DNA from: a virus
IMG/VR virus record: IMGVR_UViG_3300031972_001405
Span: 23,425 to 87,424 of that record
Direction: 5' to 3' (one strand)
DNA length: 64,000 nucleotides
How positions within the stretch are numbered: the stretch's first letter is position 1; every line of letters starts with the position of its first letter. The notes beneath the pieces were generated by a model. The model was not told the DNA's origin, made no database searches, and saw only the letters and a list, made by a program, of their open reading frames with translations. Made by a program: the position numbers and the translations under genes. Shown here in pieces: positions 19,179 through 27,398 of this stretch.

Positions 19179-19424
19179 CTACCAATCAGGATATAGTTCT
19201 CCTTCTAATCTCTTCGTCTTTTCTCTTCTAGATCTAGATATCCTTTTCTTGGAACAGTCCTTACATTCATATGAATATGATGATGGTTGATACTTATTCT
19301 TTCGAGTTCTGTAGAAACCATCAATAAGATTTTTTGTTTTACCACACACCCTACACTTTCTATCGGTAAGATAGAGATGTTCTATCTGAAATTGTTCTTC
19401 AACATTCATTATTGATATTCCCAC
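19179..19424 (-). CDS. Small zinc-finger-like protein
   Basis: CRVC...FY...YECKDC, ending YPDW; lies between gp17 and gp18. Confidence 0.7.
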   Translation of the reverse strand: MGISIMNVEEQFQIEHLYLTDRKCRVCGKTKNLIDGFYRTRKNKYQPSSYSYECKDCSKKRISRSRREKTKRLEGELYPDW

Positions 19425-21064
19425 ATGTGAGACATATCACCATATTCACCAACTGATGCATTAGACCAACGATCACCCTGAGCATCGACAAAGCTAGTAT
19501 CTTCTAGACCATCAGACATGAATCCAAATGGTGCCATATCCTGTTCAATCTGATTCTTCTGCTCGTCATATAATCTCTTTCTAATATCTTGATCCGTCAG
19601 TTCTTTGAAGTAGTCTTTTAAAACTAACCAGGCATAGATCACAAGACACATTGCCAGGTCATCATTACACCCCTCTTCTGCTTCAAAGGAATTGTGTTTT
19701 TGGATGAACGTTGTCAACTCTGAGATGATATCATAGTCATTGAAGATTAACTTATCTTCTTCAATCAAAGTCTTTAGATTCAAGCATCCTTCTTTCTTTA
19801 CGGTCTTGGACATCTTGACACCCAGTTGTGTCTTCTTGCCAGAAAATCCCTGACCAACAATTTGTCCTGCTCTACCTCTCATAGAGCACATTAAAATATT
19901 TTGATATTCGAGATCATACTGTAGGATTGATGCTACTTGATCTCCAATATCATTCACCTCACATAAAATATATGCGTTGTTATATCCTCTTACAGTATCG
20001 TAAATGATACTTGGGAATAGCATTGGTTTAATTTCATTATTTCTATATCTTGCTACAACTACATGTGGATATTGTGTGATGTCTATAACAATAAATGCAG
20101 AATAGTCGCACCCAACTCCTCTAGCTACGTCTACTGTACACACATAATCATGATCTGGTTTAGGATCTTCATAAACGTATAGTCCTGCATTCTGTTTGAT
20201 TGGGTCAGTATAGACCATTGTCCTAATCTTACTAGGAGATATCAGTGTATCAACTGATCCTAGGAATTCACATTCAAACTCAACCTTAAATTGTTGTTCT
20301 GAAGTGTTAGCAATAGTTTGCCTCTTCCACTCAGAATCTCTACCAGGAACTTCAGACCAGTGAACCTCGGTTGCAACATAATCATTTTTCTGTCTCTCTG
20401 CATCATGCCAATATCTGTAGAAATGGTTCATGCCGTGAGGCGTTGAAACCATAATTACTTTTGTGCTTTTACCAGAAGAAATAGTAGGATAAACAGATGC
20501 AAAGAATTGGTCTGCAATATGGTTTGGAATAAACGCAAATTCGTCGAGGAAGATGACATTATATGAACCGCCTCGGACAGCAGATGCAGATGTAGAAGCT
20601 GCCAGTATCTTACTGCCATTCTCCAACTCCATGGAACCTTTATTGTAAACCACAATACCTTGCTGCATCCATTGTGGTAACTTTTCATATGCAAATTGCA
20701 ATCTTCCAAGAAGATCTCTAGCAGTTGATGCTTTGTTTGCTAGAATTGCAATGTTTACATTGGCATTAAAGATGGCATAATGTAGTAGATATGATACACA
20801 CGTTGTAGACTTTCCAGTCTGACGTGGCATCTTGCAAATATTGAAACGGTGTTCGTGGAAGTTCCTCACCAATTTTTCCTGAAAAGGATACATCGAAAAA
20901 GGAACCTCACCCTCATCTAGTGAGACGATCTTAATATAATTCTTTGCAAAATATACTGGATCGGATTTACATTTCAAAAACTCTTGAATTTGATCACCAG
21001 TAAATTCAACCTGAACGTTTGCACGTTTTAGATTGGGATTACCGAGATATACTGCATCAGACAT
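19409..21064 (-). CDS. gp17: Terminase large subunit
   Basis: YLGNPNLK, PRQTGKST, LDEFAF, STPHG.NHFY, DDLAM. Confidence 0.98.
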   Translation of the reverse strand: MSDAVYLGNPNLKRANVQVEFTGDQIQEFLKCKSDPVYFAKNYIKIVSLDEGEVPFSMYPFQEKLVRNFHEHRFNICKMPRQTGKSTTCVSYLLHYAIFNANVNIAILANKASTARDLLGRLQFAYEKLPQWMQQGIVVYNKGSMELENGSKILAASTSASAVRGGSYNVIFLDEFAFIPNHIADQFFASVYPTISSGKSTKVIMVSTPHGMNHFYRYWHDAERQKNDYVATEVHWSEVPGRDSEWKRQTIANTSEQQFKVEFECEFLGSVDTLISPSKIRTMVYTDPIKQNAGLYVYEDPKPDHDYVCTVDVARGVGCDYSAFIVIDITQYPHVVVARYRNNEIKPMLFPSIIYDTVRGYNNAYILCEVNDIGDQVASILQYDLEYQNILMCSMRGRAGQIVGQGFSGKKTQLGVKMSKTVKKEGCLNLKTLIEEDKLIFNDYDIISELTTFIQKHNSFEAEEGCNDDLAMCLVIYAWLVLKDYFKELTDQDIRKRLYDEQKNQIEQDMAPFGFMSDGLEDTSFVDAQGDRWSNASVGEYGDMSHMWEYQ

Positions 21065-22899: not shown

Positions 22900-23052
22900 C
22901 TATTTCCCCTCAAACGGTTCCCAGTGCTCCCAACCATATTTATGAACTGCCCACATACCAAGAATGGGGACGAAGACTAGGCACCATGCCAAGACTCCAA
23001 CTCCCCAAGGGTTGTTTAATACTGTTCCGCAAAATCTAGCAAATTGTAACAT
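22900..23052 (-). CDS. 50-aa membrane microprotein
   Basis: TM helix followed by Trp/His-rich MWAVHKYGWEHWEPF. Confidence 0.7.
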   Translation of the reverse strand: MLQFARFCGTVLNNPWGVGVLAWCLVFVPILGMWAVHKYGWEHWEPFEGK

Positions 23053-23147
23053 CATTCTTGAAAAACCGATAGGATGAATAGAAATAATCCAAGGAAGCAA
23101 ACCAATCCTATTAAAACAAATGGAATATAATCAGGTAGGGTATGCAT
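23052..23147 (-). CDS. 31-aa single-pass membrane microprotein
   Basis: MHTLPDYIPFVLIGLVCFLGLFLFILSVFQE; stop overlaps the next start. Confidence 0.55.
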   Translation of the reverse strand: MHTLPDYIPFVLIGLVCFLGLFLFILSVFQE

Positions 23148-23223
23148 GACTCAACCCCCAGACAACAAAAATCGCAATTGAAGATAATATAATTGTTGCT
23201 GAAAGACTAGTTTCTGGTTTCAT
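23131..23223 (-). CDS. ndhQ: NdhQ-like NDH-1 small subunit homolog (30 aa, not in ORF track)
   Basis: MKPETSLSATIILSSIAIFVVWGLSHAYPT aligns without gaps to the NdhQ TM/C-terminus as recalled (ISAVLILGFIAGLIWWALHTAYA). It lacks the NdhQ N-terminal part. Confidence 0.55.
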   Translation of the reverse strand: MKPETSLSATIILSSIAIFVVWGLSHAYPT

Positions 23224-23225
23224 TT

Positions 23226-23381
23226 TTATAGATTTGGCCAGGGATCCGAATTGTGGAGACATGACCTAGGATGTGTCCACTCTCTATTTAATTCTTGTAG
23301 TTCCATTTTTAACTTTAAATTTTCGAGTTTCAACATAATGTTTTCTTTCTCTAACTTTTTAAGTTTCTTCCTGAAATTCAT
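23226..23381 (-). CDS. 51-aa coiled-coil microprotein
   Basis: MNFRKKLKKLEKENIMLKLENLKLKMELQELNREWTHPRSC. Confidence 0.55.
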   Translation of the reverse strand: MNFRKKLKKLEKENIMLKLENLKLKMELQELNREWTHPRSCLHNSDPWPNL

Positions 23382-23592
23382 TTCTTGTTTTCCATAGTTC
23401 TAAAAAGTACCTATCAACCAGGTACAAATCACCAACTGGTGGTTGATCTTCAATCTGAGACCACTCTCTACATACATCTCTCATTTCTAAAGAGATGTGA
23501 TCTGGACGAAACATTCTACCAAAAGAAGACATGGCAAACGCAAATCGCATTCTAATGCGCTGTTCCATTTCCTCTGTAGGCGTCGGTTTCAT
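23359..23592 (-). CDS. Hypothetical protein
   Basis: Start likely at 23592 (or 23568), not 23670, because the upstream part overlaps ndhP; RMRFAFAMSSFGRMF. Confidence 0.65.
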   Translation of the reverse strand: MKPTPTEEMEQRIRMRFAFAMSSFGRMFRPDHISLEMRDVCREWSQIEDQPPVGDLYLVDRYFLELWKTRNEFQEET

Positions 23593-23683
23593 AATAGTTA
23601 TTTTCACCTCTTCTGTGCCCGAAATATGCGGTGGCACATATAAAGGGTAGTGATCCGTAAAGTAGGACATGTGCTAAAGTCAT
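23552..23683 (-). CDS. ndhP: NdhP, NDH-1L complex small subunit homolog (43 aa, not in ORF track)
   Basis: MTLAHVLLYGSLPFICATAYFGHRRGENNYYETDAYRGNGTAH: one TM helix, then the NdhP C-terminal signature FG...YYxTDxYxGNG[ST]AH. ATGA overlap with the upstream gene. Confidence 0.85.
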   Translation of the reverse strand: MTLAHVLLYGSLPFICATAYFGHRRGENNYYETDAYRGNGTAH

Positions 23684-23913
23684 ACGCCTGGTTTAGGTTG
23701 TGGAAATATATTAGCAGGTCCCGTAGGTTCTGCAAGTTTTATTTCGATAACGCGACAAAGACGATTAACTTGCTTCTTGTCACATCCACATGGAGCATTT
23801 TGTAAGCACCTGAGCATTAGTAAGTCATCACTAATAGGAGGTTTGATTGTAAACCCCCATTTGTCAACCTTACCTTCTGTAGGTGCTTCGACGTAATCAA
23901 ATTCACTTGTCAT
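23680..23913 (-). CDS. Hypothetical protein
   Basis: 77-aa ORF coupled to the gnd-like and ndhP genes. Confidence 0.65.
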   Translation of the reverse strand: MTSEFDYVEAPTEGKVDKWGFTIKPPISDDLLMLRCLQNAPCGCDKKQVNRLCRVIEIKLAEPTGPANIFPQPKPGV

Positions 23914-26704: not shown

Positions 26705-26986
26705 TTATTTATCTTTTTTCTCTTCGTTAACTGTGGGTTCTTCTTTCTTTTTAGACGCAACGACACCGAACGTCGCGAGCGTTCCAGTAAAAACGCTGGC
26801 GATAAAAGTTGGATCAATGTTTTTCTGGGGAATTCCAGGAACAGTTACATAATTAAGGGTGAGAATTGCTGCTGACCATCCAAGAATAATAACTCGGACG
26901 AGAGTTGATACACCCTCATCCGCCCACTCAAATTTGTTTGAGTTTGGTTTTTCAGGTTTCGCTACCTTTACCACCTTTTCTTCCAT
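26705..26986 (-). CDS. Two-TM membrane protein
   Basis: VRVIILGWSAAILTLNY and IDPTFIASVFTGTLATFGV; ATG at 26986 has a GGAG Shine-Dalgarno. Confidence 0.75.
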   Translation of the reverse strand: MEEKVVKVAKPEKPNSNKFEWADEGVSTLVRVIILGWSAAILTLNYVTVPGIPQKNIDPTFIASVFTGTLATFGVVASKKKEEPTVNEEKKDK

Positions 26987-27398
26987 TGTCCATCTCCTTG
27001 AGCATTTTTTGTAAGTCTGCTGTTGATCCGACAAATAGTGCATTAGTAACGTTAGTTGGACCAGTTACCTTGTTATCATCATCTAAGTCTTTCACTTTCT
27101 TTTGTAAATCCATCAGTTTGTCTGTAGCATCAGACACATTTTTAATTAACTGACCAGCAACTTCATATGCTCTAGGCATCTCACTCTCACCTGCTAGTTC
27201 AAGAATACCATTGATAGCTTCTTGACCTTTTTCTATAATTGAATATAGATTGCCTCTAGTGTAATCATAATCTTTTTTAATGTGGTCAACATTATTTAAG
27301 TGCTTTTCGATTTTCACATCGACGTTCACTTTAGGTTCTGCTGGCATGATGTCAGCAGTAACGTCAAATGCATCACTCAAAGAATCAAAATCTGCCAT
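26952..27398 (-). CDS. gp16: Terminase small subunit
   Basis: DYDYTRGNLY, PRAYEVAGQLIK, NALFVGSTADLQKML. Confidence 0.95.
   Translation of the reverse strand: MADFDSLSDAFDVTADIMPAEPKVNVDVKIEKHLNNVDHIKKDYDYTRGNLYSIIEKGQEAINGILELAGESEMPRAYEVAGQLIKNVSDATDKLMDLQKKVKDLDDDNKVTGPTNVTNALFVGSTADLQKMLKEMDNGRKGGKGSET

Follow-up and report, generated by a model that had tools for sequence, protein, structure and literature searches.

The auxiliary genes of cyanophages, such as psbA, petE, PTOX and ndhP, shape much of ocean photosynthesis in infected cells. The product of the last of these, NdhP, and another small subunit of the cyanobacterial NDH-1L complex, NdhQ, are single helices that lie on opposite faces of NdhD1 and touch NdhF1, lipids and β-carotene (PMC6992706, PMC7021789). 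Deletion of either subunit leaves about half of NDH-1L dissociated and deletion of both nearly all of it (PMC11794437); together, NdhP and NdhQ hold the NdhD1/NdhF1 module on the NDH-1M core (PMC6992706, PMC7021789, PMC11794437). NdhP homologues in some cyanophages are mentioned in a passage of a review that cites Schwarz et al. 2013 (PMC6596454), and a paper from 2025 places ndhP among the cyanophage photosynthesis genes, terms it uncommon and previously known only from P-TIM68, and names S-SCSM2R (PMC12801897). Judged by homology, the locus described here carries both genes, as a full-length ndhP and a shortened ndhQ, two host-derived microgenes located in the island between gp16 and gp17.

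The window, that is, the whole stretch of 64,000 nucleotides analysed here, belongs to an 87-kb IMG/VR contig with an estimated completeness of 46%, and represents a marine T4-like cyanomyovirus whose closest isolate is Synechococcus phage ACG-2014h/S-MbCM7 (~86% DNA identity), a phage of Synechococcus WH7803. An island of microgenes, read on the minus strand, lies between the terminase genes gp16 and gp17 (Table 1). The two ORFs of fewer than 60 residues that an earlier note on this DNA had picked out as tightly packed with their neighbours are both found there, on the minus strand, overlapping adjacent ORFs or lying 1-2 nt from them.

Table 1. Features of the microgene island and its flanks (positions in the window).
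Feature	Position	Strand	Matches and remarks
Large terminase subunit	19409-21064		Flanks island, other side
51-aa one-helix ORF (MMLQFARF...), conserved cassette member	22900..23055	-	ACG-2014h, L168 homologue; negative control
31-aa one-helix ORF overlapping end of ndhQ-like gene	23052..23147	-	Conserved in ACG-2014h; negative control
ndhQ-like gene, 30 aa, TM helix and C-terminal VWGLSHAYPT	23131..23223	-	NdhQ profiles, host NdhQ ORFs
51-aa coiled-coil-like ORF, directly upstream of ndhQ-like gene	23226..23381	-	Weak coiled-coil family matches only
63-aa ORF between ndhP and ndhQ-like gene	23359..23550	-	phrog_593, unknown function
ndhP homologue, 43 aa, one TM helix, C-terminus YYETDAYRGNGTAH	23552..23683	-	6khi_P, host NdhP, phrog_2173
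77-aa ORF upstream of ndhP; T4-GC_47 in ACG-2014h	23680..23913	-	Stop overlaps ndhP start (ATGA)
Stand-alone N-terminal NAD(P)-binding part of 6-phosphogluconate dehydrogenase, 156 aa	23913..24383	-	phrog_3646 E 1.3e-96
Small terminase subunit	26952-27398		Flanks island

Several neighbours of the two genes have relatives elsewhere. The 51-aa coiled-coil-like ORF is conserved in ACG-2014h, and the 51-aa one-helix ORF is also conserved in distant viral contigs, with a homologue at L168:2494-2646. In the same contig, L168, the homologue of the 63-aa ORF comes after ndhP. A 103-aa reading of this ORF extends to 23670, overlapping ndhP in a different frame, and phrog_593 (100 positions) aligns to the 63-aa form only from profile position 41; the ORF has probably been extended across ndhP by gene callers, which helps to hide ndhP in annotations. 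Further upstream, the 156-aa Gnd domain covers 155 of the 158 positions of phrog_3646, so that the short stand-alone Gnd is a conserved phage family and not an accident of one genome; a full-length gnd (1038 bp) occupies the equivalent place in ACG-2014h.

The larger of the two ORFs encodes the 43-residue peptide MTLAHVLLYGSLPFICATAYFGHRRGENNYYETDAYRGNGTAH, which ends in FGHRRGENNYYETDAYRGNGTAH, with 1 nt between its stop and the ATG that follows. The earlier note had read it as NdhP, giving a typical C-terminal motif and previous mentions of phage ndhP, and each of these statements is borne out. A search of the PDB aligned the phage peptide over nearly its entire length with the solved NdhP of T. 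elongatus, 6khi_P (E 2.6e-4), and a single NdhP ORF was matched in each of three marine Synechococcus genomes (E 8e-8 to 1e-5, 50-62% identity). The motif Y-x-T-D-x-Y-x-G-N-G-[ST]-A-H follows the one transmembrane helix of the phage peptide and, searched as a degenerate DNA pattern, finds almost only cyanobacteria, including WH7803 and RCC307. Scans of Pfam and NCBIfam with the peptide gave nothing useful, and a two-row NdhP alignment searched against genome contigs yielded no confirmed host locus. The peptide belongs to phrog_2173 (E 7.7e-26), which PHROG labels as 'unknown function', and tblastn finds ndhP in 395 phage records, those listed describing it as a hypothetical protein. Phage ndhP is thus genuine, full-length and already published, yet under-annotated, and it is far commoner in phages than was stated in 2025 (PMC12801897).

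The smaller ORF encodes the 30-residue, 3.2-kDa peptide MKPETSLSATIILSSIAIFVVWGLSHAYPT, which ends in IFVVWGLSHAYPT and so contains the W-[GA]-L-x-x-A-Y signature near its C-terminus. It was compared with two profiles: A3, made from 11 cyanobacterial NdhQ sequences including marine ones, and A4, made from seven canonical sequences with no marine ones among them. Against the window, cut into 1677 six-frame segments, A3 matched this ORF with an E of 6.7e-9 (31.8 bits; next best E 2.3), and it was the sole significant match of A4 (E 4.5e-5; all others E >1). Across the whole 87-kb phage record A3 gave a single match, the same ORF (E 3.2e-8). Profile-profile comparison with hhalign returned probabilities of 97.1% for the 30-aa peptide against the A3 alignment and of 95.2% for an alignment of 29 phage sequences against canonical A4. 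In six-frame searches of the three marine Synechococcus genomes the peptide found exactly one match in each (E 6e-4 to 2e-3, 48-52% identity), whereas three other small ORFs of the island, the two with one helix (31 and 51 aa) and the one of 63 aa, matched nothing there at E up to 10. The match to NdhQ is therefore not a generic likeness between helices, and the two one-helix controls appear to encode membrane microproteins peculiar to phages. The W, A and Y of the signature are invariant, and the L nearly so, across 35 phage and cellular sequences. On this profile evidence, the 30-aa ORF is a significant and specific homologue of NdhQ.

The earlier note had proposed the NdhQ assignment together with profile searches, and these place the ORF in the family beyond generic transmembrane similarity. 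The segment of T. elongatus NdhQ that it gave agrees with chain 6l7o_Q, which reads ISAVLILGFIAGLIWWALHTAY in the PDB alignment, and the gap-free identity of 10/22 with the phage segment was reproduced. Where the note had compared the peptide with the T. elongatus type, the family proved right and the nearest member did not, the closest sequences being those of picocyanobacteria. Similarly, its C-terminus WWAL..AY for NdhQ fits T. elongatus (WWALHTAYA) but not marine NdhQ, which has VWGL; searched as a DNA pattern in five cyanobacterial genomes, WWAL..AY gave only one-mismatch matches, at the control rate.

Direct searches with the short peptide returned little. Pfam, NCBIfam and PHROGs held no match for the 30-aa ORF, and neither its 30-aa nor its 43-aa reading had a direct match among solved structures. 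An index of 5.8 billion proteins offered no candidate, 15 billion proteins contained no exact match, and tblastn against phage isolates found only ACG-2014h (E 0.3). Host NdhQ used in the same way matched no phage isolate, a weak search given that the query is too short. A profile made from phage sequences alone reached T. elongatus NdhQ among solved structures at E 2.3 (rank 6, behind light-harvesting helices). Since this value is not significant, the link to the solved subunit is transitive, running through picocyanobacterial NdhQ and profile-profile comparison.

The host gene through which the link runs is the same in all three marine genomes, a small ORF between ribF and a thiE-like gene, which in WH7803 reads MADAAMENGGSDSTMSVLVWGIILLGGIGVFIVWGLANAYPS. 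Profile A4 picks this ORF in each genome (E 5.5e-9, 5.7e-6 and 1.9e-5; next matches E 0.07 or worse), and A3 aligns end to end with solved NdhQ, 6khi_Q (E 1.1e-20). Sampling of the phylum gives a canonical 46-aa form, MSDLNRGIMKF.GAD.P...LG.IG.LI.WAL..AY, and two host sequences (L253 and L255, from G221 and G163) have a canonical N-terminus, DFNRGIMRFDGADHP, but a marine-type C-terminus, WGLTNAYP; by sequence, these proteins bridge the canonical and marine forms of NdhQ. The exact RCC307-type protein is hypothetical in most records, and one at NCBI (Synechococcus sp. Minos11) has it as 'NADH dehydrogenase subunit NdhQ'. Of 81 genomes in the host family, 69 contain a single strong match to the NdhQ profile, and the host has an NdhQ of its own. 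In addition to the normal NdhQ, two picocyanobacterial genomes have another, syntenic NdhQ-like ORF, MARLLQILQGSSNSADLAAWTAVIFASITALVIWGLFNAYPNML (L287:1450-1584 and L288:1450-1584, in G159 and G219), which may be a cellular paralogue.

The phage gene is compactly arranged: its ATG lies 2 nt past the TAA that ends the 51-aa ORF upstream, and the final 17 nt are shared with the 31-aa ORF that follows. An alternative 43-aa reading from 23262 exists, the extension of which is not conserved in relatives, so that the 30-aa form is the likely product. The orthologue in ACG-2014h is an unannotated ORF of 29 codons that differs by an in-frame 3-nt indel and conservative changes. A degenerate DNA pattern for F[IV][VA]WGLx[HN]AYP matches 84 IMG/VR loci, every one of them an ORF of 28-35 codons with a hydrophobic helix upstream of the motif and a stop 1-2 codons past it. 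At these loci, which have a phage-like G+C of 0.35-0.42 and are not flanked by host genes, the frame is open and the ATG and stop are at the equivalent place despite much DNA divergence. The pN/pS within subtypes, taken over the 17 codons unconstrained by the pattern, is 0.41, a value that the identity filter biases; dN/dS for the full set of phage pairs is 0.85-1.16, and was not used because the pairs are saturated and positions are not comparable across subtypes. With one of these viral forms as tblastn query, 78 cyanophage isolate records were found, including S-CAM4, S-CAM9, S-RIM12, S-SRM01, DSL-LC02 and ACG-2014e, f, i and j, and among the isolate records listed the ORF is hypothetical or unannotated. 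No phage isolate of Prochlorococcus was seen with the gene.

The gene is closely linked to ndhP, which occurs nearby and on the same strand at 70 of the 84 NdhQ-like loci; at the other 14, no ndhP is present in the flanking DNA covered. Two gene orders are seen: in the window and its relatives ndhP leads and the NdhQ-like gene lies 250-450 bp behind it, and in other loci (e.g. L168) the order is reversed, with ndhP starting 5 nt past the NdhQ-like stop. Starting instead from ndhP, an NdhQ-like ORF was found in 11 of 44 sampled viral loci flanked on either side by 2 kb or more, with a gap in score between NdhQ-like ORFs (at least 16.6 bits) and noise (10.6 bits), and all 28 NdhQ-like ORFs of the ndhP-locus sample were on the ndhP strand. 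As only about one quarter of ndhP loci have the second gene, the pair is not obligatory: NdhQ nearly always accompanies ndhP, and many ndhP phages are without NdhQ. The co-location pointed out in the earlier note is real and not peculiar to the window, and the pair recurs in the viral loci sampled (70/84 and 11/44, counted from either gene).

Contigs from four RNA-type libraries, derived from relatives of the phage, cover the ndhP stretch and not 23131-23223, which, in contigs of relatives, speaks neither for nor against expression of the NdhQ-like gene. Single contigs in two such libraries join 23092 to 23509 and 23058 to 23438 with at least 90% likeness, skipping the NdhQ-like gene. Some relatives thus seem to be without this segment, which agrees with the presence of NdhQ in only some ndhP phages.

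Comparison of phage and host sequences shows which part of the protein has been kept. Marine host NdhQ has 38-50 residues, of the form M..GGSDSPMLVLISGILLLGGIAAFI.WGLTHAYP.., and the phage copies have 28-35, starting a few residues before the helix and keeping F-[IV]-V-W-G-L-x-[HN]-A-Y-P plus one or two residues. Neither the window ORF nor any of the 30 unique phage sequences examined has the host segment that precedes the helix, and for this reason the phage ORF is filed as a shortened homologue rather than as a typical member of NdhQ. The homology proposed in the earlier note stands, with a truncation that it had missed, the phage form being without the N-terminal 10-25 residues of the host. 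Canonical NdhQ hardly varies in this segment (MSDLNRGIMKF.GAD.P), and marine hosts retain part of it (DSP); its loss means that binding or function may differ. The ending WGL..AYP is a picocyanobacterial mark, other cyanobacteria having WAL..AY, and its presence in the phages fits gene capture from picocyanobacterial hosts. A tree based on few columns places the viral sequences in one group apart from all cellular NdhQ (100/100), which fits one old capture and is no proof of it.

Among possible functions, the reading preferred here is that phage NdhP and the shortened NdhQ probably prop up the NDH-1L of the host during infection. Both peptides would be inserted into the thylakoid membrane and would occupy the NdhP and NdhQ sites on host NdhD1, a protein identified in WH7803 by its match to chain D (E 2.8e-239). 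NDH-1L could then stay assembled when host protein synthesis fails, and cyclic electron flow around PSI, respiration and the supply of ATP for phage production would continue. The earlier note had likewise proposed that the phage provides both subunits, so as to hold or bias NDH-1 toward the L form and keep ATP production going during morphogenesis, a functional proposal that is an inference beside the two supported homologies. Against this reading stand the missing N-terminal segment, the phage-only profile that falls short of solved T. elongatus NdhQ, the NdhQ that the host itself encodes and the occurrence of the pair in only 11 of 44 ndhP loci.

That the likeness to NdhQ is a chance similarity of two hydrophobic helices is barely conceivable. 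A direct search of solved structures with the peptide came back empty and the phage-only profile scores light-harvesting helices above NdhQ, both of which would suit chance similarity; however, the profiles each single out one ORF (E 6.7e-9 and 4.5e-5; next matches E >1), the same host ORF is matched in three of three genomes, the three other one-helix or small ORFs of the island match nothing, and the C-terminal WGLx[HN]AYP common to phages and hosts lies outside the helix. Chance similarity is contradicted by these profile E-values, host matches, negative controls and the shared motif. It is very improbable, too, that the ORF is what remains of a captured ndhQ, untranslated and in decay. Such a remnant could explain the loss of the N-terminus and why the ORF is missed by gene callers, has no exact match in 15 billion proteins and no PHROG, and is unannotated in ACG-2014h, but decay is hard to reconcile with a frame that is open, and has its ATG and stop in matching positions, in every one of the 84 motif matches across divergent DNA, with in-frame indels, with the tight coupling of the start to the upstream stop, or with the pN/pS of 0.41, obtained within subtypes and biased by the identity filter.

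If the gene is real and descends from ndhQ, its product may nevertheless do something else. It appears unlikely that this descendant of NdhQ has left NDH-1L for a different partner in the membrane, be it a second host complex or the other microproteins of the island. The location in a cassette of several uncharacterized one-helix ORFs that are conserved across phages and the 14 of 84 loci with no ndhP in the DNA covered would suit this explanation, whereas the part that has been kept is exactly the helix and C-terminal motif conserved in marine NdhQ, and the strong linkage to ndhP is a same-strand one and holds in both gene orders. Somewhat less unlikely, and still doubtful, is that the shortened NdhQ acts as a competitor, taking the NdhQ site on NdhD1 and, for want of the N-terminal segment, changing how stable NDH-1 is, how it is regulated or which partners it takes; the ratio of the L form to the CO2-uptake MS forms might, for instance, be shifted to the benefit of the phage. 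The absence of the host N-terminal segment from all 30 unique phage sequences and their grouping apart from all cellular NdhQ (100/100, on few columns) suggest a derived, phage-specific form and not a plain copy. On the other hand, the gene travels with a full-length, host-like ndhP, which fits help to the complex better than sabotage, and the N-terminus is already variable among marine hosts and so may not be essential.

The reading that the phage pair supports NDH-1L during infection also has a more specific version, put forward tentatively and held to be rather unlikely, in which phage NdhP and the minimal NdhQ would form a two-piece clamp that locks NdhD1/NdhF1 onto NDH-1M and draws the shared NDH-1M from NDH-1MS/MS' to the proton-pumping L form. 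If this were true, one tiny module would raise the ATP supply from cyclic flow and help to shut carbon fixation in infected cells.

Whatever its exact role, a second gene for an NDH-1L-specific subunit has escaped annotation in dozens of isolates already sequenced, as well as in many metagenomic contigs, and in most cases it lies beside ndhP. A full-text search of the literature for ndhQ with phage or viral found no mention of a phage ndhQ, one review containing NdhQ only in a cited title, in keeping with the earlier note, which knew of no co-located phage ndhQ. By homology, some phages carry a complete NdhP/NdhQ pair of the type that holds NDH-1L together, which offers a concrete, testable handle on phage-sustained cyclic electron flow, and it illustrates that genuine auxiliary functions can lie in microgenes of about 30 codons, overlooked by gene callers and family libraries.

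Of the systems already described, cyanophage ndhP is the usual neighbour of the NdhQ-like gene and resembles it in being a host-derived gene for a one-helix NDH-1L subunit carried as a phage auxiliary gene; ndhP is full-length and published, whereas the phage NdhQ-like gene is shortened and was found in no paper searched. T. elongatus NdhQ (chain Q of 6KHI, 6L7O and 6HUM), with which Nowaczyk et al. 2011 is reportedly associated, belongs by profile to the same family as the phage form, the direct sequence link between the two not being significant. It has 45 residues, with an N-terminal MATDFNRGIMKFDGADSP segment and a WWALHTAYA end, whereas the phage peptide lacks the segment and ends in VWGLSHAYPT. 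The T. elongatus protein is, moreover, an experimentally shown subunit that binds NdhD1/NdhF1 and stabilizes NDH-1L. The closest relative is the NdhQ of marine and freshwater picocyanobacteria. At the N-terminus it is longer by 10-25 residues, up to a conserved D-S-P, whereas the phage peptide starts just before the helix, and in most window-type phage copies S-S stands in place of the host helix motif L-G-G-I-G. The two nevertheless share a transmembrane helix followed by F-[IV]-x-W-G-L-x-[HN]-A-Y-P near the C-terminus, with ~50% identity over the last 21-23 residues.
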